Of a DNA stretch of 35,645 nt, positions 9,205 through 35,590 are shown piece after piece. This DNA is from a virus. Taxonomy: Duplodnaviria > Caudoviricetes. Where the stretch lies: positions 1-35,645 of the IMG/VR virus record IMGVR_UViG_3300034894_000009, one strand, 5' to 3'. A model generated the notes under the pieces. It saw only the letters and a list, made by a program, of their open reading frames with translations, ran no database searches and was not told the origin of the DNA. The position numbers were made by a program, and so were the translations under genes. Position 1 is the first letter of the stretch. Each line of letters starts with the position of its first letter.

Positions 9205-9266
9205 ATACGAAAAATGTCACGCACTAAATAGGCGTGTTGAAATAAAACTAACCCAAAGGGAAAATC

Positions 9267-10469: not shown

Positions 10470-10484
10470 AAAGGCTCATTAACC

Positions 10485-11711: not shown

Positions 11712-11720
11712 GGGGGAAAT

Positions 11721-12233: not shown

Positions 12234-12239
12234 TTAACC

Positions 12240-12270
12240 GGGAAGGTAGCCGTTATGCGACTATCTTTCC
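12240..12270 (+). terminator. Stem-loop after the capsid/decoration genes (terminator or stabiliser)
   Basis: GGGAAGGTAG...CTATCTTTCC, 10-bp stem with two G.U pairs; no U-tract. Confidence 0.35.
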
Positions 12271-12292
12271 ATATACTCAAAACGAGGAAATA

Positions 12293-16921: not shown

Positions 16922-17256
16922 TGAACACAATACAAAGAATACCTGAAACATATCGCATCTTTCTTTCTCCTGTTCAGAACAGGCTTATTGGGAGCTATCC
17001 GGCTTCAGCGAAGCGCATTCATGTTATTTGCGATAGTTCAACATCACCATTCACGGTTGAATTACCTCCGCTTGGAATAAGTGAGGAGCAGGAATTCACG
17101 TTTTACAATATTCCTTTGTCGGGATCTGGAAATTATGTTGATATTACTGCTGCAAGATCTATGGAGATAAACAAGACGGATTTTGTAAAGCGCATAATTC
17201 CCGGTGAGGCCATGTTATTTGTAGATACACTTAAGTCTTATTGGGTAACAAAATAA
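16921..17256 (+). CDS. Small tail-associated protein
   Basis: TAATG overlap; VICDSSTSPFTVELP motif resembling small beta-domains of tail proteins. Confidence 0.55.
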   Translation: MNTIQRIPETYRIFLSPVQNRLIGSYPASAKRIHVICDSSTSPFTVELPPLGISEEQEFTFYNIPLSGSGNYVDITAARSMEINKTDFVKRIIPGEAMLFVDTLKSYWVTK

Positions 17257-17265
17257 GGATAGCAA

Positions 17266-19683: not shown

Positions 19684-20000
19684 TGGATAACCCCTTAATG
19701 TACGGAGCGCAAGCAGCGGGATCGACCGGAGGCGGGATAAATTGGGCTGGTTTAGGGCAGGGACTTTTGAACAGTATCCCGGTTATAGGCCCCATTGCAG
19801 GTGGAATTTTTGGAGCTTTTGGTAATGGCATGAATGCTAATGATGACAGAAAATACCGGAACCGGCTTTTCGATTATCAGAAACAGCAGGACAAGATACA
19901 GCAGGGAAATTTCGATCGCCAGATGGGAATGAACACCCTTTCTTTACTCCGGGATGATTTTAAAACTGCGCTGTACCGGTCGCTGACGAGGGGGTACTAA
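19683..20000 (+). CDS. Gly-rich small ejection/pilot-like protein
   Basis: TAATG overlap; hydrophobic Gly-rich N-terminal half (IPVIGPIAGGIFG) followed by a Q-rich helix. Confidence 0.6.
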   Translation: MDNPLMYGAQAAGSTGGGINWAGLGQGLLNSIPVIGPIAGGIFGAFGNGMNANDDRKYRNRLFDYQKQQDKIQQGNFDRQMGMNTLSLLRDDFKTALYRSLTRGY

Positions 20001-21346
20001 TGGCTTCGACACTTGGAAGCATATTTTCTTCTTTGGGTGAATCCCTTCCGAGAATGAGCAAGGCATTCACCGATGAGGAAGAACGGCGGCGAGAGCGGGA
20101 GATTGCGCTCGAAAGGTTGGCTCAGCTTCGAGCTACCAGCGAAGACCAAAATTATGAACGAGAGCAACGTAATTTAGGTGATCAACGATACAACGAATAC
20201 TCTTCTGACATGAGCGCGCTTTCCGAGCTTGGCGGTACTCCTGAAAGCGTTTTATCGCAGATGGACGCCGGGCCGTTACCAGCACAACAGCAGGGCAAAG
20301 TACAAAAACTGTACCGACTTTCGCAGCAGAAGCCTATGGAGCAGATGCAATCGTACGATCTTCCAAAATTGGCAGGATTCAACAAGGGTATTGGCAGTGC
20401 GATTGATACTGAGCTGGCTATGGAGAGGATGAACGCTTCATCCGGGAGTACAGGCGGAGGATCTTCGGTATATGGAATGAAAAAGAAAGAGTGGAATGAA
20501 AATCCAGAAAAAGCAAAAGGTGTTTTTATGGGGAAGGTTGAAACCCTTCTTGGATTAGGTCGTATTACCCCTGAAGAGGCTGAGGTATGGAAAAAAGATG
20601 TTGATGTTAGGCCTATCGATGCGTCCATTGCTCTTGACCAGCTACTGGTTAAACCAAGTGTTTCGGCAGCTAATGTTGCCGCTCAAACTCCCGCAAAGGT
20701 AGAACAGAAATATGCTCTTATTGCTCCAGAAGCGGCAGGTGCAGTGGCAGAACAAACAGCAAAAACGAACGCTCCCAGGCGTATGGACAAGGGAGAGCTT
20801 GAGTCGTTAAGGACGAAAAGATCGATCTACGACGATTTAACATCTGCACAAGCAAAGTTTAAGCCTGAGTATGCTAAGGCATATTTCGGTAAGCTGGTCA
20901 AAATTTCATTCTTGAAACAGAATGTTCCAGGTTTTTCTGATTTTATTTCCGATCTTGAAAGAGGAGTCGGAAAATATCGAAAAGACCAATTTGGAGCGTC
21001 TCAGACTGAGGGAGAAGCATCGAATCTAAAGGATGCCATAAACAAGGATCTTGATGTTGATCCGAAAGTTTTTATCACTCAGATGAACAATTTTGTACAA
21101 TCCCTTGAGCGAGACTATTCAGATGAAGTTGAAGTTTACAAATCTGACAATGTAAAAGTTCCAGATATTTTTAATGGCATACGAACAACGAAAACAGTGA
21201 ATCCAAACCGGCCAAACCCTCCACCGGTTAACACCCCGGTAGAGAGTTCTGGTATAAAACAGATAAAAACTGATGCCGATTATGATAACCTTCCTTCTGG
21301 AACCGAATTTATTGATCCTACCGGGAAACGCAGGAGAAAACCGTAA
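20000..21346 (+). CDS. Putative DNA-transfer/ejection protein
   Basis: 448-aa helical protein; C-terminal YDNLPSGTEFIDPTGKRRRKP motif typical of podovirus ejection proteins. Confidence 0.6.
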   Translation: MASTLGSIFSSLGESLPRMSKAFTDEEERRREREIALERLAQLRATSEDQNYEREQRNLGDQRYNEYSSDMSALSELGGTPESVLSQMDAGPLPAQQQGKVQKLYRLSQQKPMEQMQSYDLPKLAGFNKGIGSAIDTELAMERMNASSGSTGGGSSVYGMKKKEWNENPEKAKGVFMGKVETLLGLGRITPEEAEVWKKDVDVRPIDASIALDQLLVKPSVSAANVAAQTPAKVEQKYALIAPEAAGAVAEQTAKTNAPRRMDKGELESLRTKRSIYDDLTSAQAKFKPEYAKAYFGKLVKISFLKQNVPGFSDFISDLERGVGKYRKDQFGASQTEGEASNLKDAINKDLDVDPKVFITQMNNFVQSLERDYSDEVEVYKSDNVKVPDIFNGIRTTKTVNPNRPNPPPVNTPVESSGIKQIKTDADYDNLPSGTEFIDPTGKRRRKP

Positions 21347-22722
21347 TGGGATGGCGTGATGCACCGATTATTGAAGATGAGGTACCAATAAAAAACGCAT
21401 GGGAATCGGCTCCGCTTGTTGAAGAAGAGCCCGAAGAAAACCCCGGATATCGTGAGCGTGTTTCATCTGGATTCGACAAAGCTCTTTCCGAAAACATCGA
21501 ACGCCAGAAGGGTGGCGCTAATCCGATTGTTTCCACCCTTAGAACACTTACCGAAGCCCCTCAGATTGCAGTGAGTGAAATTCCCGGAGTTAAGCCCCTT
21601 GGCAAAGCAATAGGCAGTCTTTACGGTAATACTTATGGAAGGATTGGAGGAATGATTAAAAAGGGATATGAAAATGCTCCTCCACTCATAAAAAAAGCTG
21701 CCGATGCAACACTTATTCCGGGAGCATTAAAGGCTATTCCGAAAGTAATTTCAAAGGCCGATGAGGTACTACCTCAAACCGCAAAAGATGCTCTTGTTAC
21801 AGGCCTAAACCTTGCCGAGTACATTCCGGCGGCTAAAGGCGTTCGTATGGCAGAGCAGGGAACTAAAGCGGGATTGATGAAGACTGGTGAGGGGCTTGAA
21901 TCGCTTGGGAAAATGGTAAAGCCAGGCGAATTAAAAATGACAAAGCCAGTTGCCAATAAAGCTTACGGGAAAACACTTGACGAAAAAAAACAAACCATTG
22001 TAAATGATATTGCGGAATTTGGAACAACAAAACTTACCAATAAAAGATCAGCAATTGATGCAATGGAAAAAGCTCAACAGCGTTTTGACAAAGCTGATGA
22101 AATTGCCACCACATTAAAAAGTAATCCAAATACGCCGCTTACCAATATTGACAACGTGCTATTAAAGGATATTGATGTTGAAAAACTTGCAGATATTGAC
22201 CTTGAAGATTCGGCGATTGAATACATACAATCTCTCGTATCAAAAATGGATAAAAAGGGATTTCGAGGAGAGGTTACACTTGACCAACTTATAAAGGCAA
22301 AGCAATCTTTAAATAGGCAGGGAAAAGTATTTGGGCATGGCCCGGCACCAACGGATGAAGATGCGTTGAAACAGGTAATAAAAAAGAAAATGTATCTTAA
22401 TCTTGTTGACGCTATTGGAGAATTATCACCAGAAATAAAGGCAATGAATCAGGAAGGTAAAAGGCTCCTTGATGTGCATGCAGCACTTACCGGTGCGGCA
22501 AGCAGAGAAGCAAATTTAAATGCAGCGGGACTTACGGATTGGGTTGTTGGGGGGGCTACTATTGCGAATCCTGGATCATTGGCGGTTACCGCACCGCTAT
22601 TAGTTACCAAGAAAGCCCTTGGTGGTGGCAGATTCGGCAATTTGTCGATAAATGCAGGTCGATTTTTACAGGGGAAAAATCCAAAATCTATTGAAGAAAC
22701 GCTTGCAAAGGTTGCAAGATAA
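21346..22722 (+). CDS. Putative DNA-transfer/ejection protein
   Basis: 458 aa; N-terminal WRDAPII/WESAPLV repeats; A/G/K-rich helical body. Confidence 0.6.
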   Translation: MGWRDAPIIEDEVPIKNAWESAPLVEEEPEENPGYRERVSSGFDKALSENIERQKGGANPIVSTLRTLTEAPQIAVSEIPGVKPLGKAIGSLYGNTYGRIGGMIKKGYENAPPLIKKAADATLIPGALKAIPKVISKADEVLPQTAKDALVTGLNLAEYIPAAKGVRMAEQGTKAGLMKTGEGLESLGKMVKPGELKMTKPVANKAYGKTLDEKKQTIVNDIAEFGTTKLTNKRSAIDAMEKAQQRFDKADEIATTLKSNPNTPLTNIDNVLLKDIDVEKLADIDLEDSAIEYIQSLVSKMDKKGFRGEVTLDQLIKAKQSLNRQGKVFGHGPAPTDEDALKQVIKKKMYLNLVDAIGELSPEIKAMNQEGKRLLDVHAALTGAASREANLNAAGLTDWVVGGATIANPGSLAVTAPLLVTKKALGGGRFGNLSINAGRFLQGKNPKSIEETLAKVAR

Positions 22723-22813
22723 ACGGTATAAACTCCGGCACCGACATACAAGTCCGGGTGTTTAAGATGGCAACGAAAGGAAAGAGATGTGTGAGATAAA
22801 GATTGGTGGTCGA

Positions 22814-23215
22814 ATGGTTGAAATTAGTCTGCTGTCAAAGACGAAAGACGGAAAAATCGATATCGCAGCTACTATTAAAAGCGTATCGATAGTGGGGGGA
22901 GTACTAATTGCAACAGTTGGCACTCTCTACGGATGCGGTAAAGCTTACGCCGATCTAAAGATCACGCAAATGCACCAAGAAGTTTTTATTCCGACGATGA
23001 CTGAGTTTGTAAAAAAAATATCATATACAGAACGCGAAACTGATTCAATAATAGCGTATTGCAACAATAAAAACAACGAAGAGGTGCGGCTGCTTCTTCA
23101 TGAGATATCTTTTCAGATGAGGGTGAATAACCAGATGCATATTGACAATGAGGGTATCGAAGCGTACAACAACGCGCTTAAAAAGGTGCTTGCTATCGAC
23201 GGTAGTGGAAAATGA
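22814..23215 (+). CDS. Single-TM membrane protein (lysis-region)
   Basis: GGTGG SD before MVEISL; TM segment SIVGGVLIATVGTLYG followed by a helical region. Confidence 0.55.
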   Translation: MVEISLLSKTKDGKIDIAATIKSVSIVGGVLIATVGTLYGCGKAYADLKITQMHQEVFIPTMTEFVKKISYTERETDSIIAYCNNKNNEEVRLLLHEISFQMRVNNQMHIDNEGIEAYNNALKKVLAIDGSGK

Positions 23216-23595
23216 AAACAGAAGCCTTTGCCACGGTATTATTGTGTCTGTTTATTTGTATGATAACAGTACTGCAATATCAACTGTATAGCCAAAAAGA
23301 AGATAAAAATATATTTTTGAAATGGCAGAGAAATGGGTATGAATATGTTGATTATCAATCTACAGACGGAAAAGTGTACCATGTAATTCCAGATCAAGTA
23401 TTTTGGAACAAATACGGGTATAATGCGGCAAGGCATGGATTGTCAATGTTTTATTGGAACTACGGAAATAGGGTTATAAATGTTCCAAGTGACGGAATGT
23501 TTATTATAAATCAGGACAACGGTGTGTTTTACGTTGATGTAAATGGAAAACCAATTACGCATCTTGTTGATGTAATAGCTAGGAGGTCAGAATGA
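23212..23595 (+). CDS. N-terminally anchored hypothetical protein
   Basis: ATGA overlap; hydrophobic N-terminus. Confidence 0.6.
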   Translation: MKTEAFATVLLCLFICMITVLQYQLYSQKEDKNIFLKWQRNGYEYVDYQSTDGKVYHVIPDQVFWNKYGYNAARHGLSMFYWNYGNRVINVPSDGMFIINQDNGVFYVDVNGKPITHLVDVIARRSE

Positions 23596-24350
23596 TAAAA
23601 CAAGAATTTATCGACCACACGAAAACCGTCCGGGCATGGATAATTGCAATGATTGCATCGTGGGATGACCTGGAAAAGATCACTAATCTCATTCTAAAAT
23701 ATGTAGGTAATCCAGAATTAAAACTATTCAACGAAAAGGTTGATTCGTGGTTTATCGCTCAGTTTCCAGAGATGAATATTATAGGAATTGACGGTACTAA
23801 AAATATACCGGCATGGATATCAAATCTCGACGGGTTCGGAACATATTTTCATGATGGAATTTTTGATGCAACACATGATACCATTTTACCAGAATGTGCG
23901 ATCATTAAAAACACCCGTAAAAACACCCTGATTGCCGGACAGTCGCGGGGTGGGCTAATTGCTCTTTTCCTAAATTATCTTTTGAAAGGACAAGGGTATC
24001 AAAACGTGGAGTCGTTCGGCTTTGCGAATCCTTTTGGAACGACAAATGCAGGAACCGAAAATATGCGCAAATTCGGAATACGCCACACAAACTTTGTGAC
24101 CGATGCTTTTGGTAGCATTCCCTCAGATCCAACTGACGATGTGGGGGTTATTGGTGGCGGGCACTACGGGCATGTTGAGACGTTGTACGGGGGAGCCGGG
24201 GTATTTGATCACTCATACCTCAATATCACGCTAAAACTAAGCGCCTGGCTGCTCAGGCAATACGACGAGAAACATGATGAGAAGCTTTTGCGTGATGCGG
24301 TATTCTTGGCAAAAATGGCCGATAAGGGAAACGATTTAATAAAGAAATGA
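23592..24350 (+). CDS. Alpha/beta-hydrolase, class-3 lipase-like
   Basis: IDGT, FHDGIF, nucleophile elbow IAGQSRGG, SFGFANP, candidate catalytic Asp (SDPTDDV) and His (DHSY). Confidence 0.8.
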   Translation: MIKQEFIDHTKTVRAWIIAMIASWDDLEKITNLILKYVGNPELKLFNEKVDSWFIAQFPEMNIIGIDGTKNIPAWISNLDGFGTYFHDGIFDATHDTILPECAIIKNTRKNTLIAGQSRGGLIALFLNYLLKGQGYQNVESFGFANPFGTTNAGTENMRKFGIRHTNFVTDAFGSIPSDPTDDVGVIGGGHYGHVETLYGGAGVFDHSYLNITLKLSAWLLRQYDEKHDEKLLRDAVFLAKMADKGNDLIKK

Positions 24351-24357
24351 GGACTGC

Positions 24358-24600
24358 ATGAAACGAAACATTGCAATTTTAATGATTATCATTGTTGAGA
24401 TTCTTCGGCAGCTTGGAATCGATGTGAATATCGAACAGGCTAATTATACCGGCGGACAGCTTATGCAGGGTATTGCTGCATTGTGGGGAATATATGGTGT
24501 TGTTCAATCTCTTCATAAAAAGTGGAAAGCCGGAGAGATTGACCTGTTTAAAATACTGATTAGCGTTTATGATAAATACAAGAAAAGCGGTGGGAAATGA
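24358..24600 (+). CDS. Holin-like small membrane protein
   Basis: 80 aa; two hydrophobic segments around LGIDV; basic C-terminus. Confidence 0.5.
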   Translation: MKRNIAILMIIIVEILRQLGIDVNIEQANYTGGQLMQGIAALWGIYGVVQSLHKKWKAGEIDLFKILISVYDKYKKSGGK

Positions 24601-27600
24601 GATTTATTTTATTCGTTCTGATTATTGTGTCAGTGGCATTTTCAGCAAATTTTTTCATTCGATCTGACGGAGTAGCAACAAAGGCAAACGCCACCGGCCC
24701 ATATACCGACGTTAATGCCTGCATGACCGTAACCACACATAACGCCGCTACTTATTCGGCTGGTGATAATGTTTACATTTACGGAGTTAATAGATTAACA
24801 GCTCTAAATCCTCCGTCCACTGGTGTTAATTATAAAAATATTGGAGGTATGGCTGAAATAAACGGATCAAAACTATTGACATCTGCAACATATAGATGGA
24901 TAAAAAGTTCTTCCGGTCGTAACGAGTATTATTGTGAACTTGCAGCAGGCGGTAATCCGTCGATAGCAAGTCCATCATACATGTGGATAAATGACCAAAG
25001 GTGCCTTGTTGACGGCACACTTGGAAACCTTGACCAACATAAAGGCAAGTATGGCGATAATGACGGTTTGGGATTTTCAACAATTTACGTTAGATTTGAA
25101 GAGGGAGATCCCGATGTTGTGACAGGCATAAAAGTTGAAGTGTCGGCAACCAACTATGCATGGACACACACTTCAACTAATATAGCAAACTGCACGTTTG
25201 ATTCTATCCTGTTTAACAAAACCACATCATACGTAGGATATTTAAGTACAGCGTGTACATCGTTTGTATTCAAAAATTGTCGCTTTGAAAAAGGTTCTGA
25301 CATGTTTCAAATGACGAATCCGATGCGGTGGAAATTCCACAACTGTACATTCGCAGAATCACATGGAGCAAATTACGGCGTGTACGTAATAGGAACTTCA
25401 ACAGATTCAATATTGTTTAATTATTGTGTTGTCAAAGAAACGTACTCAAACGGATTCTATTTTAATACAACGGTTGCAACCGTTTATGATATTATCAACT
25501 GTAGTATTTACGGAACCGGAAGTACAGCAGTACGCATACCAACTGGTAATACAGATGCAGAGGTAAATATAAGCAATACAGCCATAATAAATCATGGTTG
25601 GCGATCATCATCGACTTATGGGATACAGGCATCTTCCGGAACTGTTGATGTTGCTCACAGTTACTATACGGATAACTGGGTTTCACCAGCAAGTGGTGGA
25701 GGAGTAACTGGAACTATTGATAGTACCGGAAATATATACGGCGGATTTTCTCGCATTGTATCACATAAAATAAAAAACGCACCATTTGCAATAACGTTCG
25801 ATGACCGTACAAGCCTTGCATATGCAGACACATTGGCAAAAGTGTGTAACGCAAACGGGGTATACCTTACCGTTGCCCTTCCAAATACCAATCAATTTAG
25901 TGCCGCTGAATGGGATACTGCAAATGTTTTTGTATCAAATGGTAATGAGATATCGAACCATACGCAGGATCATGCCATGCTTAACGTAATGACGGCCTGT
26001 ACGCTCCAGTATGTTGGAGCAGGAACTGCTGCAACAGTTACCATAGATTCGGTAAACAAAACCCTCGTTACATCAATAACAGATGCTTCTGGCGATAATT
26101 TAAACATATCTCTTACCAATGCATCGTACAATACAACGACCGAACTAATAGCATACCTCGAAGGGCTTGCTGCGTATACATGTGGAAAAACAGAAGCATA
26201 CAATGATGCAGTTCAAACATCATTATTATTTGGTGTTTCTGGATCAAGTATAATGTCGAAACTTCCGTTGGGGTATGATTCAACAAGGTTTTACGATTAT
26301 CAAATAGCAGGTAATGCAAAATATCTTGACGATTCTATAACAGTTGCAGGATATACCTGTAGAACAATCTTGTGGCCCTACGGAAGACACGACGATAGTG
26401 TCGATGTCTTCTCACGAAAACTTGGAGTGATAGGCGCAAGAGACGTATCTCCTATGATTTCAGAATTTCCTTATGTTGATATTTACGATATACCATCATG
26501 GGGAATATCTGACATATATTCTGCTACGGAAGCGACGATGAAACGAAGATGTGCCGCCGTGCTTGAGGGCAGCGCGTATACCGGATACGGAGCCTGCTTG
26601 CAGCATGGCTGGACAGGAACAAGTAAGGCAGGAAGTATTATATTTACTGAATACGCAGATACGGCTCAAGAACTCGGGTATTGTAAAGCCACAACGTTCG
26701 CGCTATTGAGTGATACCATAAGATCGTGGGGCACACCTTATAGAACAAACATTGACACAGGAAGATTCTATTTTATTAATAACAGAAATTATCTTGATTT
26801 AAGATTGCTCAGCGCGTCACCCCTTGCTTCCGCCGGAGATACCGGGAAGCTAAAAAGAGATCTTGGATTGATATTAAATATGAATGGCGATACCATTGTT
26901 AGAGCTGACGGATCTTTAAAAACTACTAGTGTAAATATAGGAGCATATGGAACATACAATGCCTCACCGCCTCCGGACTCTTTTACAATAGATACAACAT
27001 GGTATTTGGGAGGAGCAGCAAGTGGAACTGTGATAGTACTACCTTCGCGACTTAAATTTGAGGAAAACGAACCATGCTCAGTTGTTGCAATCCCGTCATC
27101 TGGATATAGATGCGACTCCATTATTTATCAAGGGGACGGAATAATCGGAGAGACAAAAATAACAAATGACACATTGGCTTTAACAATGACAGAAAACATT
27201 AGCGCAAGCGTGTATTTTTCACTTATTCCTGTAGTAGACACGAATACTTACGATACAATAAACAGGTGGTCTGATTTACTTTTTCAAGATTATTTTGAAA
27301 CTGGTACATATCATCGATGGGCACAAATAGGTGCTGTAGATGTTTGGGATTGGAATAAATTGGACACTGTAAATGTTACAGATAGCATTAAAAAAGGAAG
27401 ATATGCGCTTAAGGTTAAATACGACGGAAAATGTAATGCATTGTTTGACGATGACTATACAAACACAACGAACCGGTCACACGACACTGTTTTCGAGAGG
27501 TTTGAAATATACTTAGGAAGCGATTTTTCTCTCACCACAAACAGTGAGGTAGTAATAGGATCAGTTGCAAACACTACTCAGGGAAATCAGGCGTATTTGC

Positions 27601-30600
27601 TAATCCGTAACGTAGCTGGTAGTTACGTATTAAGAGGATTTTCCTTTTCTGGCTTAAACACAAACGGTACAACTACGATAAATAAAGAGCAATGGTATAC
27701 AGTAGAGTTTATGTATGATAATACAAATAATAGATTTGCAGCATGGTTAAATGGTTCTGTTGAAATAAACCAAACTCCATCATTTAGCTATCCAGTGCAC
27801 AAAATATCGATAGGGTCAGAAGATTATTTATCGTCGTGGTCAGGGACAATGTTTTTTGATAACGTGATTGCGGCAAAAGATTCTATTGGGTACCAAAAAG
27901 AAATAAAGTTGATTTATCCAGATTTTAGAAGCAGAGTAAGTGCAAACGTTACTGCAATCTTTCTGGAAGAAGATGTTGGAGACTATGCAATCATAAAGAT
28001 TGATGGAACTGCAATCGACACACTATCCTCACCGCTTAATGGAGTAGGATATTTTAATGTAAACATAAATTCATTAAGCTCTGGAAACCATATCCTTAGA
28101 GCCGTATTGTACAATTCTTCGGATGATTCTTTAACCAAAACAGATTATAAATTTTATAAAGAATACTCATCTACTCCAGCGTTTACAATTGATTCGTTAA
28201 ACAACATTATAATTGATGGCAATAGGAAAATACTTGCGACCTCTTTTTCTTCTACTTTAGGCGGCATTAGAACTGTTGCAGTAGATTCAAACGCTGTTAA
28301 TATTATGATGGGCGGGAGCTTTTCAAATACCGATGTGGGGAGGTATTTAGATTCTTGTAATTTGTTTGATATTAAATTCATGGGGCCTGCACTTTTAAAT
28401 AACTGGTACAGCTCTGTTCCAAATGATACGATTGACAGTTTAATTTCTCGGCATAGCAGCGATCCTGCAATGGCTGCATGGATATTCCAAGAGGAGCCTG
28501 ATAATTGGGGGTCTGACCCACTGGAGACTAAAGAGTGGTGGGATACTATAAAAAAGCAAGACCCTATTCACCCACATGAAATTATTTTGATGGGATATTC
28601 TTATTTTGATAGCAACTGGCCAAGTACAAGGCGGTATCATTGGCCGACGTGGTCGGGAGATATTTATGGTTTTGACGTTTACCCAATTGCGCATTGGGAT
28701 GATGTAGGAGAAGATCATTTCGGAATAACTGAATATGTAAATTGCGTTGATGCAGCCATACAATGGAACCATTTTAAAATACCGGTAATACCGTTTATAC
28801 AGTCATCTAACTGCAATACCGGCTCTTCTTCATGGTTACCAACTGATTCGATGGTCATAAATATGTCATGGTTGGCGATAGTGCATGGAGCAAAAGGAGT
28901 GCATTGGTATCCATATCCGATTGATGGGACTGTGTGTGAAGATCCTGACTATGTTGATTATAGATATATCGGAATGAGGAACTTTAAAATACAAATGGAC
29001 TCTCTATCGAAATATATATGTTCCGACTCTGCCACTGGATTTACAATAACAGATAATGCAAACGATTCTGGAAGTAGGGTGGATTTTATGTGCAGAAAAG
29101 ATGGTGATACTACATACGTTTTTGCTGCGCGACTTTCTGAGCCAAATGAAATAAATACTGTTTCCGCAACATTTACAACTAATCAAACGTATCGAGTAGA
29201 TAAGTTAAACCTTGGTACGTGGGAATATTCTGAACATGATGCTAATTCATCAACGTTTTCTTCGGCGTTTACGCCAAACGATGTGCAGATTTTTAAATTA
29301 TACACTGACGAAACACCCACAGAGCCACCGGTGATAACAGTAGATCCGGTGTCGGTAACCGACACCATCAACCGGGACACTACGCTCTTTGCAGCAGCCA
29401 CTGGAGCAACATCGTGGCAGTGCCAGATATGGAGCGATGGCTCATGGACGGACACGGTTGCGAATGACTCGGCAAGGGTTGCTCTCACGCAATCCAGGGA
29501 CGGCGACAGTATACGCTTTATCGCGTCAAATACCGGCGGAGACGATACCAGCACGGCGGCTTTAATTACGGTACTCGCCGACACTTCGGCATATTTCAAC
29601 GTTGTTGTGCTGCCGGACATGCATATTGAAACAGCACTGAATTATCAATATGCAAAGTCTCAAGCTCAATGGATAATTGCAAACAAAACCGTGCAGAATA
29701 TCAAATACGTAGTTACCGTAGGCGATATGGTAACAAACGCAAAAACACGGCAAGAATGGCTGTGGGCGGACTCTATTTTCGACATGCTCGATACTGCAAA
29801 AGTTCCATACGCGATTGCTACCGGGAACCACGATTATGATTCCCTTGGAATTCGCCGGCTTGATTCGATGGCTCTTTATTTTCCGAAAACAAGGCTATCG
29901 AATAATTTTTGGTGGAATGGTAAATTTTGTGATTCAAGCAAAATATGCGAATCTGGCGTAAACACATTTACGGCATACGGGAATGCGTACGGAGTAATGA
30001 CTATAGAGGCTTTCCCGCGCGATACAATAACAGCATGGGCGAAAGAGTATTTGGATACCTCCAGCAATTATTACAATATTTTGTCAACACACTCTTATCT
30101 CGACAGCAACAACACCATTACCTCTGCAGATGTAACAGTTCTGACCGGCGAGGACATGGGGGATTCGATCTGGAAAAAGCTTCGTACAACCGATATTAAC
30201 TTCATAGTTTCCGGTGACATCGGAGGGAAGCTAAATTCATCCGGATTCCGGGTAAATTACACGAAACAAAAGACATATTGCAACCAGTTCAACAACGATT
30301 ACCAGCTGGAGGGAACATCAAACGGTGGCCTTGGATATCTCAGGATTTACAAATTTAAACCGATTGCAAACCGTATTGAAGTTCGCACGTACTCACCGTA
30401 TTTAAATCTGTACTCGAAAACTGATTACAGAGATAATTTTGCAACTTATATGTTCACTCCCGACAGCATAGGAAAATTGCCGAACAAATACATCAAACAT
30501 GCACTGTTGCCGACGGCTGCAAAGCTCGGGTACAATCCTGATTCCACTACCGGGAATTTCACCGTTGATAACACTGCCGGCAACAAATATCTGATCTACC

Positions 30601-31304
30601 GGGGGCCGAGAAACGACACAGACATAACTGTTACCGGGGCGAATTTGACCTATGCCAACGGTAAGCTAAAATTCAACAATTCCTCGACTTACATCACTTC
30701 TCCAACATACCGGCTGCGATTCGGGCAGCATGATTCCCTAAACATTTCACAGCTCGTTGTTGCACAAGTTAAGTGGACGGCTGCAAAAGACCTGTTCGGA
30801 GATCAGGGCACCGGCGGTTTTGGTGGGCTACAATTTTACCAGTCGATTACGCCAAAACGTTTTAGAGTACTCATGCAGCCAACAGCTACTACCGGAGGAT
30901 ATGCAATCTCTAAGTCGGTCAATCCAGGAGCCACAGACACTGTGCAGCTCGGATACGAGATCGATGGGGGAGCACCGCACGTTTATTACAACGGTGCTCT
31001 GCACGACTCGCTGACTAAAAATATTACCCATGACACTACGGTTGCCAGTGCGCTATACGGGTTCTGCGACATCGCCTATTTTGATACTGCTATTATTGCA
31101 GCGGTGCTGTTTGATACATCGATCGAGGCAACAGGGTTCAGCGGGATTTACTCTTCTGGTGGATCTTTTGGAGGATTAAAACTTTTTGACAATAACTTTT
31201 TAGTTGATTCTACTTTTTATAAAATCGATGACCTTGATATAGTTTCGGATGGAGCCAGTCACCGCAGATGGTGGTCATGGAGAGCGTTTAGTAATTGGAG
31301 GTAA
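24597..31304 (+). CDS. 2235-aa secreted multidomain protein: beta-helix, NodB-type polysaccharide deacetylase, LamG-like, glycoside-hydrolase-like barrel, Ig-like, calcineurin-like metallophosphoesterase
   Basis: Signal peptide MRFILFVLIIVSVAFSA; NCTF/NCRF/NCSI beta-helix repeats; ITFDD, NHTQDH, WPYG; WIFQEEPD, GFDVYP, AIVHGAKGVHWY; LPDMH, VGDMV, TGNHD, STHSY. Confidence 0.85.
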   Translation: MRFILFVLIIVSVAFSANFFIRSDGVATKANATGPYTDVNACMTVTTHNAATYSAGDNVYIYGVNRLTALNPPSTGVNYKNIGGMAEINGSKLLTSATYRWIKSSSGRNEYYCELAAGGNPSIASPSYMWINDQRCLVDGTLGNLDQHKGKYGDNDGLGFSTIYVRFEEGDPDVVTGIKVEVSATNYAWTHTSTNIANCTFDSILFNKTTSYVGYLSTACTSFVFKNCRFEKGSDMFQMTNPMRWKFHNCTFAESHGANYGVYVIGTSTDSILFNYCVVKETYSNGFYFNTTVATVYDIINCSIYGTGSTAVRIPTGNTDAEVNISNTAIINHGWRSSSTYGIQASSGTVDVAHSYYTDNWVSPASGGGVTGTIDSTGNIYGGFSRIVSHKIKNAPFAITFDDRTSLAYADTLAKVCNANGVYLTVALPNTNQFSAAEWDTANVFVSNGNEISNHTQDHAMLNVMTACTLQYVGAGTAATVTIDSVNKTLVTSITDASGDNLNISLTNASYNTTTELIAYLEGLAAYTCGKTEAYNDAVQTSLLFGVSGSSIMSKLPLGYDSTRFYDYQIAGNAKYLDDSITVAGYTCRTILWPYGRHDDSVDVFSRKLGVIGARDVSPMISEFPYVDIYDIPSWGISDIYSATEATMKRRCAAVLEGSAYTGYGACLQHGWTGTSKAGSIIFTEYADTAQELGYCKATTFALLSDTIRSWGTPYRTNIDTGRFYFINNRNYLDLRLLSASPLASAGDTGKLKRDLGLILNMNGDTIVRADGSLKTTSVNIGAYGTYNASPPPDSFTIDTTWYLGGAASGTVIVLPSRLKFEENEPCSVVAIPSSGYRCDSIIYQGDGIIGETKITNDTLALTMTENISASVYFSLIPVVDTNTYDTINRWSDLLFQDYFETGTYHRWAQIGAVDVWDWNKLDTVNVTDSIKKGRYALKVKYDGKCNALFDDDYTNTTNRSHDTVFERFEIYLGSDFSLTTNSEVVIGSVANTTQGNQAYLLIRNVAGSYVLRGFSFSGLNTNGTTTINKEQWYTVEFMYDNTNNRFAAWLNGSVEINQTPSFSYPVHKISIGSEDYLSSWSGTMFFDNVIAAKDSIGYQKEIKLIYPDFRSRVSANVTAIFLEEDVGDYAIIKIDGTAIDTLSSPLNGVGYFNVNINSLSSGNHILRAVLYNSSDDSLTKTDYKFYKEYSSTPAFTIDSLNNIIIDGNRKILATSFSSTLGGIRTVAVDSNAVNIMMGGSFSNTDVGRYLDSCNLFDIKFMGPALLNNWYSSVPNDTIDSLISRHSSDPAMAAWIFQEEPDNWGSDPLETKEWWDTIKKQDPIHPHEIILMGYSYFDSNWPSTRRYHWPTWSGDIYGFDVYPIAHWDDVGEDHFGITEYVNCVDAAIQWNHFKIPVIPFIQSSNCNTGSSSWLPTDSMVINMSWLAIVHGAKGVHWYPYPIDGTVCEDPDYVDYRYIGMRNFKIQMDSLSKYICSDSATGFTITDNANDSGSRVDFMCRKDGDTTYVFAARLSEPNEINTVSATFTTNQTYRVDKLNLGTWEYSEHDANSSTFSSAFTPNDVQIFKLYTDETPTEPPVITVDPVSVTDTINRDTTLFAAATGATSWQCQIWSDGSWTDTVANDSARVALTQSRDGDSIRFIASNTGGDDTSTAALITVLADTSAYFNVVVLPDMHIETALNYQYAKSQAQWIIANKTVQNIKYVVTVGDMVTNAKTRQEWLWADSIFDMLDTAKVPYAIATGNHDYDSLGIRRLDSMALYFPKTRLSNNFWWNGKFCDSSKICESGVNTFTAYGNAYGVMTIEAFPRDTITAWAKEYLDTSSNYYNILSTHSYLDSNNTITSADVTVLTGEDMGDSIWKKLRTTDINFIVSGDIGGKLNSSGFRVNYTKQKTYCNQFNNDYQLEGTSNGGLGYLRIYKFKPIANRIEVRTYSPYLNLYSKTDYRDNFATYMFTPDSIGKLPNKYIKHALLPTAAKLGYNPDSTTGNFTVDNTAGNKYLIYRGPRNDTDITVTGANLTYANGKLKFNNSSTYITSPTYRLRFGQHDSLNISQLVVAQVKWTAAKDLFGDQGTGGFGGLQFYQSITPKRFRVLMQPTATTGGYAISKSVNPGATDTVQLGYEIDGGAPHVYYNGALHDSLTKNITHDTTVASALYGFCDIAYFDTAIIAAVLFDTSIEATGFSGIYSSGGSFGGLKLFDNNFLVDSTFYKIDDLDIVSDGASHRRWWSWRAFSNWR

Positions 31305-31691
31305 CGGTTGCGCTATGAGTTCACTGATCTTGCTGACAAGATAGTCTGATGTTACCGACTTGCAGTAACTTGACATATCTTTGTACTCGTTTACCACTTT
31401 GGTAATATCAGCCTTTAGCTGTTGCCTGTCTGTGGCCTGCGACTCCTGATTAGCCTCCGCGCATCTTCCGCTTATTTTTTTACCGTTCTTGATAATAAAT
31501 CCAGATGGATCAATATACACTCCCCCAAACTCACAAAGCTCGCCATTTACGGTAATGGTACGTGGCCCGTCAACGTGGATTCCCATAGCTACTAAATATG
31601 CTGAAATCGCTATCGCAACCTCATTGCCGGTTAAATCAATTTGAACCCCCGGCCAATATTCTGTAGCCCATTTACCAAACGAGACTTTCAT
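31275..31691 (-). CDS. Cassette 1 gene, hypothetical protein
   Basis: AAAGGGA SD before MKVSFGKW; reads through the left arm and S0. Confidence 0.7.
   Translation of the reverse strand: MKVSFGKWATEYWPGVQIDLTGNEVAIAISAYLVAMGIHVDGPRTITVNGELCEFGGVYIDPSGFIIKNGKKISGRCAEANQESQATDRQQLKADITKVVNEYKDMSSYCKSVTSDYLVSKISELIAQPLPPITKRSP
31303..31423 (+). repeat. Degenerate attC-like spacer S0
   Basis: AAC-GGTTGC-GCTA..CTGAT ... ATCAG..TAGC-T-GTT; the AAC overlaps the stop codon of the giant gene. Confidence 0.45.
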
Positions 31692-31746
31692 ATTTCCCTT
31701 TCTTTGGAGCGGCCTACAATATTTGATCTCGCAGGCCATTGCGCAT

Positions 31747-31805
31747 AACGTGTTGCTCAATCTGCGCTGGCCGGGTCAGTTTCCGGCTGGCGTAGTTAAG
31801 CTGTT
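31747..31805 (+). repeat. attC-like spacer S1
   Basis: AAC-GTGTT-GCTCAA-T-CTGCGCTGGCCGG-N8-CCGGCTGGCGTAG-TTAAGC-T-GTT. Confidence 0.8.
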
Positions 31806-32018
31806 GGGCGATGTGCCCGTTTTTTCTATAGTGTTCGCGGCGCACGACACACACTTAGGAAAGGCACTTTCAGCCTTTGTTGCTAAACGCCATGACACGC
31901 GCACCGTTGAATAAAAGCACTCACGGAACTTCTCGATATTTATTGAATCATCAACGCACGCCATACATGGCGTTTTACCGCATTGTTTATCTTCGTAACA
32001 GCAAATAACCCACTTCAT
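31776..32018 (-). CDS. Cassette 2 gene, Cys-rich hypothetical protein
   Basis: AGGCGG SD-like sequence; arms GTTGGGCGATGTGCCCGTTTT / AAAACGGGCATTTCGCCCAAC and GCGGCGCA / TGCGCCGC. Confidence 0.65.
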   Translation of the reverse strand: MKWVICCYEDKQCGKTPCMACVDDSINIEKFRECFYSTVRVSWRLATKAESAFPKCVSCAANTIEKTGTSPNSLTTPAGN

Positions 32019-32063: not shown

Positions 32064-32120
32064 AACGTCACGCGCAACCCGCCAGTAGTGCCGCTTTGGG
32101 CATTGCTGGCTTGCGCTGTT
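32064..32120 (+). repeat. attC-like spacer S2
   Basis: AAC-GTCAC-GCGCAA-CCC-GCCAGTAGTGCC-N6-GGCATTGCTGGC-TTGCGC-T-GTT. Confidence 0.85.
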
Positions 32121-32952
32121 GTATGACGTTTTGTAAACTACCATGATTTTCAGCGGCGCATTTTCGATATATAATTGCGGGTCGCGCCCACTCGCGTTGA
32201 AACTTCTGCCACGTTGAATCGACGGTGTTCTTCACGTCGCGCCAGAGCATCGCCATAGGAAAAAAACCCAGTTCTACGCAAAGGCGCAGTCGCACTTCTG
32301 CCGCTTCGAAGGTGTCTCGCGGATATCCGATAAGGCAATACACCCGCATGCTTTGCCGAGTGAACCCGGCCGACCTAAGCATCGCAGAAGCTATTCTGAG
32401 CGGCTCCTCGTCGTCGGGCGTATCAAATGCGAAAAACATCTGAGCGGGCCGCAACTTTGAAAGTAGATCTACATGCCACGGTAAAAGCCGCTTTGCTTCT
32501 AATCCGCCAGTAAATTCCACACGCCTGCGCTGCCGCATGAGCATATCAAAAACCCCGCGTATATGCCGCTCAGAACAGGCCAGTATGTTATCATCAAGAA
32601 CATTTGTACCGTCCACAATAGGCAGTTCTACGAGGCCGGGTTCACGCTGCCACACGGAGCAAAACCAGCACCGATTCGGGCACCCGCGAGACGTTATTAC
32701 CGCACCTTCACGAACGTACATTCCAGGCACGAATACTGCGCCCGGTTGATTGTGGGCAGGACCTCCGAATTTAATAGGCGCGACGTGTCTCCACTGTTCC
32801 GCAAGATAATCAGCGCGACCCATATCCCACGTAAACAGAGTAGATACGTGTACCTCGTCGGCTTCATCGAAGAAACCAGGGACATCGTAATACGCCAGAC
32901 TATCGGTAGGTGACAGCCGGGTCTTTCGTGGGAATACTCTCGCAATCTTCAT
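32068..32952 (-). CDS. Cassette 3 gene, radical SAM protein
   Basis: Start MKIARVFP; TSRGCPNRCWFC (CxxxCxxC), LDDNIL, FAFD and VYCLIGY motifs. Confidence 0.9.
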   Translation of the reverse strand: MKIARVFPRKTRLSPTDSLAYYDVPGFFDEADEVHVSTLFTWDMGRADYLAEQWRHVAPIKFGGPAHNQPGAVFVPGMYVREGAVITSRGCPNRCWFCSVWQREPGLVELPIVDGTNVLDDNILACSERHIRGVFDMLMRQRRRVEFTGGLEAKRLLPWHVDLLSKLRPAQMFFAFDTPDDEEPLRIASAMLRSAGFTRQSMRVYCLIGYPRDTFEAAEVRLRLCVELGFFPMAMLWRDVKNTVDSTWQKFQREWARPAIIYRKCAAENHGSLQNVIQQRKPAMPKAALLAGCA

Positions 32953-32991: not shown

Positions 32992-33052
32992 AACGTTTGA
33001 CAAATGGTGACGTTTCCAATGTGCCTTTAGGCCGAAGCACCATTTGTCTGTT
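32992..33052 (+). repeat. attC-like spacer S3 (branched)
   Basis: AAC-GTTT-GACAAATGGTG...CACCATTTGTC-T-GTT, perfect 11-bp stem. Confidence 0.85.
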
Positions 33053-33251
33053 GTGGGATGTAACTCCCACTTTCAACCAGTTCATAGGAGCCGTATTCGC
33101 CCATAGCTTCGAGGCGTGCCATGATACAAGACCCGCACAGAAGGCCTGCCCCCTCGGCTTTCCCAGACGGTTTGATACGCTCCCAAATTTCGTCTGGCAC
33201 GCCCACATCAATACGGTACTGATTTCCACACCCTTGACATTTACACGACAT
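33027..33251 (-). CDS. Cassette 4 gene, zinc-ribbon-like protein
   Basis: AAAGGAG SD; MSCKCQGCG...VPDEIW...GLLCGSC. Confidence 0.75.
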   Translation of the reverse strand: MSCKCQGCGNQYRIDVGVPDEIWERIKPSGKAEGAGLLCGSCIMARLEAMGEYGSYELVESGSYIPQQTNGASA

Positions 33252-33299: not shown

Positions 33300-33360
33300 A
33301 ACGGAATAGCATGGCGACGTACCGCTTCGGTATGTGCGTAGCGAACGCCATGCGGTTGTT
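33300..33360 (+). repeat. attC-like spacer S4 (branched)
   Basis: AAC-GGAATA-GCATGGCG-ACGTACCG-CTT-CGGTATGT-N10-CGCCATGC-GGTT-GTT. Confidence 0.8.
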
Positions 33361-33402: not shown

Positions 33403-33693
33403 CTACACTGACGACCTTTCACATAATTCATTGATGAGCGCAACCGACCTGTAAATACGATCGTTCGTTGCTGAGATAAAACCATCGAAATCGGAAAGCG
33501 AAGGCAATTTATCTGCGAGACCACACACCTTCGGATCTCCGGGGCCGATAACCGGAGCAAACTGAAGTTTGAAATGACCTACAGCTTCTTCGAGAACACA
33601 CAGAGCCTTGCCAACCTCATCAGTTCGTGATGAAAACTTCGACTGTGCCTGAAGAGCCGTAGCGCCGTTTGATGGATAACCTATTGTTTGCAT
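33403..33693 (-). CDS. Cassette 5 gene, helical hypothetical protein
   Basis: AAAGGAG SD before MQTIGYPS; the stop codon abuts the inner arm TCCGGGCACA. Confidence 0.7.
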   Translation of the reverse strand: MQTIGYPSNGATALQAQSKFSSRTDEVGKALCVLEEAVGHFKLQFAPVIGPGDPKVCGLADKLPSLSDFDGFISATNDRIYRSVALINELCERSSV

Positions 33694-33751
33694 GAGAACG
33701 ATGCTCCTTTTTGTGCCCGGACTACAATCTCGGGCTGGGTTTATTTTTACC

Positions 33752-33799
33752 AACGGGTTGCCGCACGCCCGATCGTTTTAATGTAGGGCTGCGGCTGTT
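33752..33799 (+). repeat. attC-like spacer S5 (42-nt family)
   Basis: AAC-GGGTT-GCCGCA-C-GCCC-GATCGTTTTAATGT-A-GGGC-TGCGGC-T-GTT. Confidence 0.9.
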
Positions 33800-33816
33800 A
33801 TGCGACGTAAATCCGC

Positions 33817-34035
33817 CTACCCGTTTTCTTTGGCGGGCGACGTTTCAAAACGACTGATGCGACTGTCGAGAATCTGAAGGTAATTCAACATCGCCGACGA
33901 CTGTCGGTTCATATCGAACTGTTCAATTTCGGGAAGCGACTTGAAAACATCGCCACCCAAAAATGCGTTCAACTTATCGAGACGGCTTTTAAGCTCGTCT
34001 CTTTCAACAATGACTCTTTCCTGATGCGGTTGCAT
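33817..34035 (-). CDS. Cassette 6 gene, crAss001_48-like small helical phage protein
   Basis: MQPHQERVIVERDEL..RLDKLNAFL...F..LP..EQ..M.RQ..AM..Y..IL..RI pattern; AAAGGAG SD. Confidence 0.75.
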   Translation of the reverse strand: MQPHQERVIVERDELKSRLDKLNAFLGGDVFKSLPEIEQFDMNRQSSAMLNYLQILDSRISRFETSPAKENG

Positions 34036-34103
34036 AGTAGCTCCTTTATGGTGTTAAATGTAAGCCCGCCAACTTTGATTTAAGAGGCGGATTTATGTTG
34101 TAT

Positions 34104-34151
34104 AACGGCCCCGCGCACAGCCGATCGTTTTAATGTCGGCTTGCGCGTGTT
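34104..34151 (+). repeat. attC-like spacer S6 (42-nt family)
   Basis: AAC-GGCCC-CGCGCA-C-AGCC-GATCGTTTTAATGT-C-GGCT-TGCGCG-T-GTT. Confidence 0.9.
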
Positions 34152-34172
34152 AGCCGATGTAAACCGCGCATC

Positions 34173-34487
34173 CTAATTGCCTTTCGGCGCATACACCGTT
34201 ACGACCTGTTCTTTTGCCTCGTACTCGCAAATACTTCCGGTATCGAACTTAAAGCCCGTTTCTTCTGCCGACATATCGCCGGTTGTTTCAGCATCACGAT
34301 ACCCGATGAGCATACCGTTTAATTCAACGACGGCAGTATAGTCAATCCACCAGCGCCGCCTTGATTCGTTGCCGCGCCATACTTGCTTGGCCTCACGTAT
34401 AGATTCAATGATTGTGGCCTCGTCGGCAGAGTATCCGTTTGCAGAATTGAACGCTGTTACATGCTGCAATACTTTTTCGTTAATCAC
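34173..34487 (-). CDS. Cassette 7 gene, hypothetical phage protein
   Basis: AAAGGAG SD before GTG (MINEKVLQ); RRRWWI...VVELNGMLIGY..A.TTGD. Confidence 0.75.
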   Translation of the reverse strand: MINEKVLQHVTAFNSANGYSADEATIIESIREAKQVWRGNESRRRWWIDYTAVVELNGMLIGYRDAETTGDMSAEETGFKFDTGSICEYEAKEQVVTVYAPKGN

Positions 34488-34542
34488 AAAGGCTCCTTTC
34501 TTTTTGCGCCGAACTATAAACTCAGCGCGGTTTATTTTGGCT

Positions 34543-34668
34543 AACGTGTTGCCGCACCCGCAAGAAGTTAAACTTTCCCACACTCACGATACCGCTCATC
34601 CTGATAGTGCTGCTCAATAAGCTGCATAGGATCGATGTCGGAAAGTTTAATTTTTTGCTGCGGCTGTT
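34543..34668 (+). repeat. attC-like spacer S7 (long, 120 nt)
   Basis: AAC-GTGTT-GCCGCA-CCC-GCAAGAAGTTAAACTTTCC...GGAAAGTTTAATTTTTTGC-TGCGGC-T-GTT. Confidence 0.85.
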
Positions 34669-34921
34669 GTGTTTTGTTGACAGTATCACCTTGAATTTCT
34701 TCTGGCGCGTTATCGTCTTTAACCCAGTATACAGGGACAAACGGAACGTGAGCCAGCTCGTTTTGATATTTGCAATACTTTACCGGACAGATACAAACCT
34801 TCAAAAAGCCACGGTACCCCGTGATGAATACCGCCGGTACCTTACTGGCAAACTTACACGTAGAAAAACTATTTCCCGTATCGTGACAGAACGGTATTTT
34901 ACAACTTGCCACGCTTGACAT
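34568..34921 (-). CDS. Cassette 8 gene, Cys-containing hypothetical protein
   Basis: AAGGAG SD before MSSVASCK; stop codon lies inside S7. Confidence 0.65.
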   Translation of the reverse strand: MSSVASCKIPFCHDTGNSFSTCKFASKVPAVFITGYRGFLKVCICPVKYCKYQNELAHVPFVPVYWVKDDNAPEEIQGDTVNKTQQPQQKIKLSDIDPMQLIEQHYQDERYRECGKV

Positions 34922-34976
34922 AAACAACGCTCCTTCGCGCCAGACTACAATAAAAAGAATGCTGGCAATTGAACAC

Positions 34977-35047
34977 AACGGATCAGCAAGGCAGAAGCGC
35001 CGCTTCGGCGTTTGGGTCGAGGCTTTGCGAGCCTGCCTTGCGTTGTT
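34977..35047 (+). repeat. attC-like spacer S8 (branched)
   Basis: AAC-GGATCA-GCAAGGCAG-AAGCGCCG-CTT-CGGCGTTT...CTGCCTTGC-GTT-GTT. Confidence 0.8.
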
Positions 35048-35291
35048 GGTTGACGTTTGGCAGTAGCACCTTATTTGCTTTTTGCTGCCGGTGATATTCG
35101 CGACAATGATCCGCAGAACAGAAACTGTTATTATGTGAATGCTCTGCACCGCAAAGCAAGCACCTTTTTAACGGCCTTGAAGTTCCGGAGTGTGAAAAAC
35201 AGTCGGCAAAACCAACCCCATGACATAGCATGGTGCCCATTGCCATTGCCAAAACTGCATAGTTTAACTGACGTTTCATAGGATTATTCAC
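34983..35291 (-). CDS. Cassette 9 gene, FCS-type zinc-finger protein
   Basis: GGAGG SD before GTG; CLLCG...FCSADHC motif. Confidence 0.7.
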   Translation of the reverse strand: MNNPMKRQLNYAVLAMAMGTMLCHGVGFADCFSHSGTSRPLKRCLLCGAEHSHNNSFCSADHCREYHRQQKANKVLLPNVNQQRKAGSQSLDPNAEAALLPC

Positions 35292-35350
35292 TTTATCGCA
35301 CCTCCGTAGGCAGCAAAACTATAATAAAGTTCTACTGCCTAATGTTAACC

Positions 35351-35398
35351 AACGTGTCGCGCAACGTGTGATCGTTTTAATGTCACACTTGCGCTGTT
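35351..35398 (+). repeat. attC-like spacer S9 (42-nt family)
   Basis: AAC-GTGTC-GCGCAA-C-GTGT-GATCGTTTTAATGT-C-ACAC-TTGCGC-T-GTT. Confidence 0.9.
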
Positions 35399-35437: not shown

Positions 35438-35590
35438 TTAACACGAAAGATCACAAGGAGCGTCCCCACACTCTTCGCATAATACCGGAGACCAGTTACA
35501 CCCAGAAGCAGCTTGACCATCTACGGTATCGGAACCACACTTGGGACACTCTCCATTTGGCTTACCTAAATCCCAACCATCTGAACACAT
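35438..35590 (-). CDS. Cassette 10 gene, 50-aa eight-cysteine mini-protein
   Basis: Manual translation MCSDGWDLGKPNGECPKCGSDTVDGQAASGCNWSPVLCEECGDAPCDLSC; AGGAAGG SD; below the ORF-track length cutoff. Confidence 0.75.
   Translation of the reverse strand: MCSDGWDLGKPNGECPKCGSDTVDGQAASGCNWSPVLCEECGDAPCDLSC

Follow-up and report, generated by a model that had tools for sequence, protein, structure and literature searches.

The window analyzed here is the whole of the IMG/VR record IMGVR_UViG_3300034894_000009 (35,645 nucleotides, nt; record G000), a linear contig of a Caudoviricetes virus estimated to be 82% complete, which ends in an array of what we take to be mobile gene cassettes, the subject of this study. 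From position 31747 to the contig end, nine hairpins (S1 to S9) alternate with nine short genes on the minus strand, and the last letters of the contig (35643..35645, plus strand) are the AAC of a tenth site, belonging either to the next hairpin or to an entry site. Throughout, L, X, G and P followed by a number denote a locus, a sequencing run, a record and a recombinase protein, respectively, whereas S stands for a hairpin site and c for a cassette.

Three of the sites, all of which lie on the plus strand, form a class defined by a 42-nt spacer motif, namely S5 (33752..33799), S6 (34104..34151) and S9 (35351..35398). The first-pass annotation had described them as AAC, 42 nt and GTT with a 6-bp and a 4-bp stem, and in each of them the 6/6 and 4/4 pairs are indeed Watson-Crick. 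Its identical loop holds for a conserved 14-mer, present in three copies on the plus strand of the window against 0.0002 expected from base composition, but the 42-nt length requires a fifteenth 'loop' base that differs (A in S5, C in S6 and S9), and the segment is likely a continued stem with a second unpaired base (G-C, A-T, unpaired T, C-G, G.T, T-A and a 4-nt loop). A natural variant without the unpaired T (L018, near 14190) keeps the register of this continued stem; that reading is weakened by the lack of variation of these pairs across the alignment and by the energy model, in which only two of them form. An extrahelical base is likewise present in the three sites, but it is not fixed as the C proposed, as T, A and G occur elsewhere and about a third of sites (55/167) have none. 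S1 (31747..31805; 5/1 spacer), S2 (32064..32120) and S7 (34543..34668; long tip) share the base assigned to them, with bulges of T in S1 and CCC in S2 and S7, except that the 6-bp stem of S1 holds one mismatch. S3 (32992..33052; 4/1 spacer), S4 (33300..33360; missed by the detector described below and placed by hand) and S8 (34977..35047) have branched tips, S4 and S8 both with CCGCTTCGG, as had been noted.

The metagenome search proposed in the first-pass annotation was performed, together with viral records and genomes, with the pattern AAC-N16-motif-N12-GTT and retrieved six viral, six genome and 43 metagenome stretches, in some of which array contexts and neighboring recombinases were found. 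Including the window, the 58 matches correspond to 32 distinct 48-mers, several loci being one contig found twice; the S6 48-mer accounts for 12 of the 58, several of these again being the same contigs. Over all 32 distinct 48-mers, chance matches included, 94.7% of the 608 cells of a 19-pair structure are paired, two-sided changes occur at 11 of the 19 pairs, and the covariation score reaches 0.532, compared with 0.143 for shuffled data (0/500 as high) and at most 0.108 for slid partners. The number of pairs with two-sided changes, taken alone, is not above shuffles (87/500); pairing is in a shifted register in L042/L052 and partial in L022. Since the stability of the single hairpins exceeds that of shuffles only modestly (z = -1.8, -3.0 and -2.3 for S5, S6 and S9), the case for the hairpins rests on covariation and context. 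Regarding context, another site is present in 43 of the 53 motif loci, and among the remaining ten, three (L007, L008 and L028) are stemless chance matches and five are under or nearly 1.7 kb. All 45 multi-site loci use one strand. These data, with the AAC junctions in other samples, support the reading of the motif as a recombination element of gene cassettes rather than as REP-like (repetitive extragenic palindromic) repeats or terminators outside cassettes. The GTDB matches with genuine sites are short contigs in metagenome-assembled genomes of four unrelated labels, two of which carry terminase genes.

A detector combining flank weights with stem pairing, whose maximum score on 271 kb of shuffled DNA was 20 and which was applied at cut-offs of 24 and 27, yielded 154 distinct hairpins of 45-169 nt. 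Although symmetric spacers were allowed, 121 of the 154 have a 5/1 or 4/1 spacer and three a 5/5 or 5/4 one. As G follows AAC in 143/154 and T precedes GTT in 151/154, the unpaired 5-versus-1 region described earlier, correctly seen as asymmetric, really consists of a G.T pair and a bulge confined to the AAC arm. The same G.T/mismatch signature, outside the AAC/GTT core, is repeated in mirror position within the inner stem, and the alignment predicts a folded site of two mirror boxes sharing this mismatch-plus-G.T signature, the GTT arm supplying 28 contiguous nt (11-6-11) and the AAC arm carrying all unpaired bases. Extrahelical bases lie on the AAC arm in 94 of the 154 hairpins, on the other arm in four, on both in seven and on neither in 49; in 53 sites of that class they are C (32), T (17), A (2) or G (2). 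Their use as strand determinants by the attC rule, as first envisaged, is not supported, because on the best-folding strand they sit on the AAC arm, the arrangement of the non-recombined strand of attC (PMC5027507). The non-coding (bottom) strand folds better in 101/154 hairpins (mean -0.86 kcal/mol). One core geometry is common to all tip classes, and different classes are mixed within the arrays beside a single recombinase in L090 and L092; the tips are therefore read as cassette lineages and not as separate systems, so that the suggestion of at least two sub-families survives for hairpin tips but not for the core. Rfam gave no relevant match for the window or L018. A similarly built hairpin in opposite orientation lies within an array at L001:4185-4275, below the cut-off in the later detector.

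The cassette genes point toward their own hairpin, as in integrons, and in 84 of 91 cassettes the expected strand carries the longer open reading frame (ORF). When the 17 nt that follow each GTT of the window are compared with the reverse-complemented 17 nt that lead up to the next AAC, 12-15 positions agree in all nine cassettes, against 2-10 for all other window pairings; in 116 adjacent site pairs unselected for this property the median is 13 versus 6, with at least 12 matches in 76 versus 1. By virtue of this complementarity between its own ends, each AAC-to-AAC unit would close on itself once excised. G.T pairs favor the site (plus) strand, with 201 versus 64 in the 116 pairs and 123 versus 9 in the 76, which points to it as the folded strand; G.T occupies position 11 in 112 of 127 cassette ends, a set chosen with a small bonus for such pairs. 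In modeled circles the C-G pair of AAC/GTT has a pairing probability of 0.92-0.98, compared with 0-0.54 in the array, and the plus strand has the lower energy in 9/9 cases; these models predict that the folded site forms well only in the excised circle.

Besides their outer ends, all nine window cassettes contain a second inverted repeat of 8-10 bp that starts 33-40 nt inside each end. Across loci, 93 of 131 cassettes have an inner repeat of at least 7 bp, compared with 47 of 599 mismatched controls, with positions peaking at 35-37; the repeat is preceded by a TTRTAG-like motif at the gene start, with CT on the other arm, and is irregular in bacterial cassettes. The ORFs of the window, all on the minus strand, are given here with the arms of their inner repeats. 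The c1 ORF (31776..32018; repeat 31837-31844 / 32020-32027) encodes a Cys-rich product of 80 amino acids (aa) that matches no family, and it continues across the frame into S1; c2 (32068..32952, 294 aa; repeat 32153-32161 / 32951-32959) encodes a radical SAM protein (phrog_9298). The start codons of c1 and c2 lie at the inner repeat without a preceding ribosome-binding site and would be leaderless if transcription began there. No family was assigned to c3 (33027..33251, 74 aa; repeat 33086-33094 / 33259-33267) or to c4 (33403..33693, 96 aa), whose stop codon abuts the repeat (33393-33402 / 33712-33721). The c5 ORF (33817..34035, 72 aa; repeat 33830-33838 / 34064-34072) is PF21825, crAss001_48-related, and takes its stop codon from the frame, while c6 (34173..34487, 104 aa; repeat 34183-34191 / 34505-34513) matches phrog_11684 weakly. 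The products of c7 (34568..34927, 119 aa; repeat 34701-34709 / 34936-34944) and c8 (34983..35291, 102 aa; repeat 35080-35089 / 35309-35318) belong to no family, and c9 (35438..35590, 50 aa; repeat 35429-35437 / 35603-35611) is phrog_13157. PADLOC gave 0/10 matches on the cassette proteins, and so shows no defense role. Payloads elsewhere include members of the PHROG recombination-directionality-factor family, DNA methyltransferases and an acyl carrier protein (L034:1429-1848, L015:185-796, L090:10193-10900 and L074:10832-11107).

A comparison covering 8 of the 13 listed runs revealed the cassettes in different orders and combinations in other samples, with junctions at AAC. In X2, a 249-nt contig joins 35163-35350 (188 nt, the start of c8) to 34104-34164 of S6 (61 nt) and not to S9; there are no differences on either side of the joint, and four letters at the AAC fit both sides, so the exact bond is not resolvable. 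The c2 unit from AAC to AAC (32064-32994) recurs as well, being covered from 32064 and 32062 to 32994 and 32996 in X12 and X5, respectively. In X1, which may be the source sample, S9 and c9 have a depth of 15.5 versus 6.4 beside them and a second left neighbor. The whole c9 cassette is 80% identical to a version in L045/L046 that carries a different hairpin. A further X1 contig (31769-33004, c1 and c2) has a depth of 10.4 versus approximately 5 on its flanks, as if it had a second context in that sample.

A recombinase gene and an entry site occur together in L018, L088, L090 and L092. In L018, which has 17 detected sites, the array stops at an AAC without a hairpin, 109 nt ahead of the gene of a divergent recombinase of 271 aa (P0001) whose relatives are named Patescibacteria, and in the phage contig L006 the stop codon of a 272-aa recombinase (P0002) overlaps a hairpin-less entry site. 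The best 80 of 187 viral loci were examined for the P0002 family. The five close members (43-100% identity, L006 included) carry the entry motif at the 3' end of the gene in 5/5 cases, as judged by eye, three of them with arrays and two on contigs that end within 81 and 18 nt of the AAC; among the same best 80, a hairpin site was found at 0/75 of the other, distant loci. Aligned by eye, the entry sites show two boxes separated by 7 nt in 8 of 11 cases and by 6 nt in two. Among 401 genomes of the phylum of record G008, a P0001 relative was found in 46, with a site within 1.5 kb at 9 of the 30 best loci, and wider regions around P0001 relatives contained at least one site in 6/10 cases, always upstream of the gene. 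The cultured phages with similar recombinases (Freya_10, LE1 and M16-3) have no array by the detector. In L018 (16250-16900), just past the recombinase, repeated palindromes of a different type lie on either side of a GIY-YIG-like gene.

The catalytic residues R132, K155, H212, R215, H238 and Y247 are invariant in 39/39 family members, P0001 and P0002 both retain the catalytic residues, and the predicted structure of P0002 (predicted local distance difference test, 90.5) has Vibrio cholerae IntI4 (PDB 2a3v) as its best fold match and XerA as the second. IntI4 is also the top sequence match of P0001, in which 21 residues span what takes 63 in IntI4. The insertion characteristic of IntI is absent from P0001 and P0002, with a gap in all five array-linked proteins aligned, and TIGR02249 matches below its cut-off and in two pieces.

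Considering these results together, the hairpins quite probably are the ends of nine mobile gene cassettes, likely serving as single-strand recombination sites for a short XerA/IntI-like tyrosine recombinase. Tyrosine recombinases usually cut at the 5' edge of the center, and such a cut would fall in the AAC of the plus strand, where the junctions lie; the enzyme would cut the folded plus strand within AAC, between A and C. The cassette would be excised as a circle and inserted at the hairpin-less entry site beside the recombinase gene. By analogy with the integron and CTX-phi, a single strand exchange may be followed by resolution through replication, with the bulge blocking the second cut (PMC4792948), and the one-sided bulge may do the work of the missing I2 helix.

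Several observations weigh against this explanation. No recombinase was found among the 39 scanned window proteins with PHROGs and Pfam, nor with a P0002-family profile, and PF00589 is absent from seven other site-bearing viral records, two of them estimated to be 95% and 100% complete; G012 is 100% complete with 11 detected sites, and G011 has terminal repeats yet is rated 55% by CheckV. Consequently, the enzyme is assigned by neighborhood in other genomes and many arrays would need it in trans; for the window it would come from beyond the contig end or in trans. Around P0001 relatives, 21/30 loci have no site within 1.5 kb and 4/10 have none within approximately 10 kb, and viral P0001 relatives lack a site at 12/13 loci. 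The array-linked P0001 and P0002 are not grouped in the recombinase tree, which is poorly resolved and whose support is too weak to place the enzymes. Moreover, the flank weights of the detector were trained on motif matches, so that its counts lean to this site family; the X2 joint is one contig with a depth of 2.7; and neither a circle nor the reaction itself was seen.

Integrons are the closest point of reference, with single-gene cassettes in one orientation, an AAC/GTT core closing an imperfect hairpin downstream of the gene, a non-coding strand that folds better, exchange at AAC and a hairpin-less entry site beside a tyrosine recombinase, and the tyrosine-recombinase fold, as modeled for P0002, and the catalytic residues are kept. 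The rules for attC and IntI used here were taken from PMC5027507, PMC7439510, PMC4889954, PMC8352920 and PMC4792948. The array could accordingly be viewed as an ordinary cluster of attC sites lacking integron-integrases (CALIN), whose attC sites are divergent and are recombined by a classical IntI that the host supplies in trans, and its AAC/GTT core, gene orientation and bottom-strand bias do match integrons. Phages are known to carry clusters of cassette sites while encoding no integrase in that genome, and 5/6 tested phage attC sites were active with IntI1 (Qi et al., 2023; PMC9892861); the unpaired bases in S5, S6 and S9 would be 6 bp apart, the preference of IntI1 (PMC5027507). Those phage CALINs were found with classical attC models and work with IntI1, the longest in the part of the paper covered having three sites, and an overlap of its 17 CALINs with the present site type is possible. 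We nevertheless regard this explanation as quite unlikely. The attC spacer has 5-6/5-6 nt, and its extrahelical bases lie opposite the AAC arm on the recombined strand, usually G then T (PMC5027507), whereas the sites described here have a one-sided bulge, with a near-symmetric spacer in only three of 154 hairpins, and unpaired bases on the AAC arm that are mostly pyrimidines. The recombinases neighboring the arrays, of approximately 270 aa, lack some 42 residues including the IntI-specific insertion near patch III / the I2 helix (PMC4889954; PMC4792948), and the detector, applied to the classical Shewanella phage integron, gave no array. Unlike in integrons, the cassette ends are complementary over approximately 20 nt and carry the inner 9-bp repeat, and the phage recombinase is co-oriented with the array. 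As the geometry fails the classical attC rules, the system is considered integron-like in its working, but not an IntI/attC system.

Alternatively, host XerC/XerD (or XerA) might recombine the folded site, as happens with CTX-phi, the neighboring short recombinase being incidental. The dif layout is 11-6-11, and XerCD/dif, CTX-phi and XerA share with the present system a short recombinase without I2 and two boxes around a short center. The folded site has two boxes and a 6-nt center (Xer site spacers are given as 6-11 bp; PMC9771954), and some near-complete array-bearing phages have no tyrosine recombinase. In CTX-phi, moreover, a folded single phage strand, which is only predicted here, is the substrate that XerCD recombine without an I2 domain (PMC4792948). 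Host Xer action is nonetheless hardly probable, considering that the entry site lies at or overlaps the end of the phage recombinase gene in all five close P0002 members and that the boxes are far more variable than a fixed Xer site. The present system also differs in its gene-cassette arrays, in its bulges and extrahelical bases, which the CTX-phi stem lacks as far as extrahelical bases are concerned (PMC4792948), and in the dedicated enzyme that neighbors the entry site.

A role as RNA structures (terminators, processing stems or promoter modules), with genes moving between similar frames by homologous recombination, is very improbable for these elements. In its favor, the paired ends could form in RNA too, the inner repeat has a TATAG-like motif ahead of it on the gene-start side, with start codons mostly within approximately 20 nt after it, terminator-like matches number 15 versus 5.1 in shuffles and homologous swaps could account for some shared frames. 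Against it, G.T pairs favor the non-coding strand, promoter-like matches are at chance (5 versus 5.4), no Rfam family was matched, the junction lies at the 4-nt AAC overlap and stop codons lie beyond the inner repeat in 76/89 cassettes, often within the hairpin.

In addition to the shuffling of whole cassettes by the proposed recombinase, the sequences display a pattern at a second level, in which a frame of approximately 45 nt at each cassette end closes on the inner repeat of approximately 9 bp and genes appear to be exchanged at or near it. Among 132 cassettes, 24 pairs share an end, and 19 of these have unrelated interiors, seven sharing both ends. For example, c6 and a cassette of L024 agree at 87 of their initial 88 nt and likewise at the opposite end, and the matching stops at the inner repeat; their proteins give no BLASTP alignment, that is, unrelated genes occupy one frame. 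Breaks were seen at 34190-34191 and 34505 in X4 and X12, and in X12 also at 33839 and 34059. The breakpoints are not always sharp, the offsets ranging between -4 and +25 for the gene end and between -2 and +46 for the gene start. The stop codons beyond the repeat were counted in mechanically called ORFs, and at the join the reading frame is random. When the C-terminus of the protein family was projected by hand, it fell within approximately six residues of the repeat in 8 of the 11 read-through ORFs that were informative; the projection misses it in c2 and two others, and four ORFs with mid-profile matches were left out.

Two readings of the frame were rejected. The stop codon as a capture target was dismissed, given no enrichment before the inner repeat and frames of 33/26/34 of 93, and so was a sigma-70 promoter at the TATAG-like motif, given that promoter-like matches are not above shuffles and that T follows TATAG in only 36%. 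The inner frame resembles REP elements in that one arm has a GTAG/ATAG/GGAG-like end ahead of its G+C-rich stem and the other arm has CT there, TnpA-REP being reported to require GTAG and to cut at CT (PMC8266576); unlike in REP, the 'loop' is a whole gene, there is no local palindrome and the motif is loose, and the likeness is a lead only. No empty frame was seen, the shortest of 135 cassettes having 140 nt. Near 10009 in L207 (G278:C14), a candidate 83-nt unit beside a bacterial recombinase, a weak match, could be an empty cassette. Neither a reverse transcriptase nor an HUH transposase (Y1_Tnp, PF01797) was found in the five phage records (0/5 each), hosts not having been searched for the latter. 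We tentatively propose, as possible rather than probable, a two-level system in which the I2-less recombinase shuffles cassettes and a second dedicated enzyme joins coding sequences between the arms of the inner stem; the inserted segment would extend from the ribosome-binding site to about the last codon, in random frame and usually without a stop.

The array converges on the end of a structural block on the plus strand (3778..31304) that encodes terminase small and large subunits, an SU10-type capsid protein and a 2235-aa protein. The latter (24597-31304, plus strand), a multidomain protein at the end of the block, has polysaccharide deacetylase and metallophosphoesterase domains, and its stop codon (31304) overlaps an AAC where the array fades out. 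Here a probable degenerate distal cassette, c0 (31275..31749, minus strand), contains a 137-aa ORF (31275-31688) and a site half (approximately 31401-31451) common to other loci; a complete distal site S0 at 31303-31422 was rejected, as the region does not fold as a site. Other phage-like site-bearing loci (L004:872-7752, L005:4301-10014 and L013:1900-10140) hold blocks of glycosyltransferase, aminotransferase or epimerase genes, which suggests DNA or surface modification.

The use of folded attC sites by a tyrosine recombinase is attributed to the IntI insertion, and enzymes without it are discarded by standard tools. No description of this site type, enzyme or frame was found in the literature searched, subscription journals lying mostly outside its coverage. 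An origin of integrons from Xer-like enzymes has been the subject of speculation (Escudero, 2016), and the same source states that there is no reliable model of cassette genesis (PMC4792948). Overall, the gene cassettes at the end of this phage contig are real and likely integron-like in their working, and they fail the tests of attC geometry and the IntI insertion. A system with integron logic widespread in phages and bacteria, an insertion-less enzyme and differently built sites would test how integrons arose from Xer-like enzymes, and would also be an overlooked route of gene exchange among phages. Besides, frames with a fixed inner boundary and swapped genes provide a defined substrate for studying cassette genesis and may show how such cassettes are made; if the two-level proposal is true, the frames would be the visible factory marks of that genesis.

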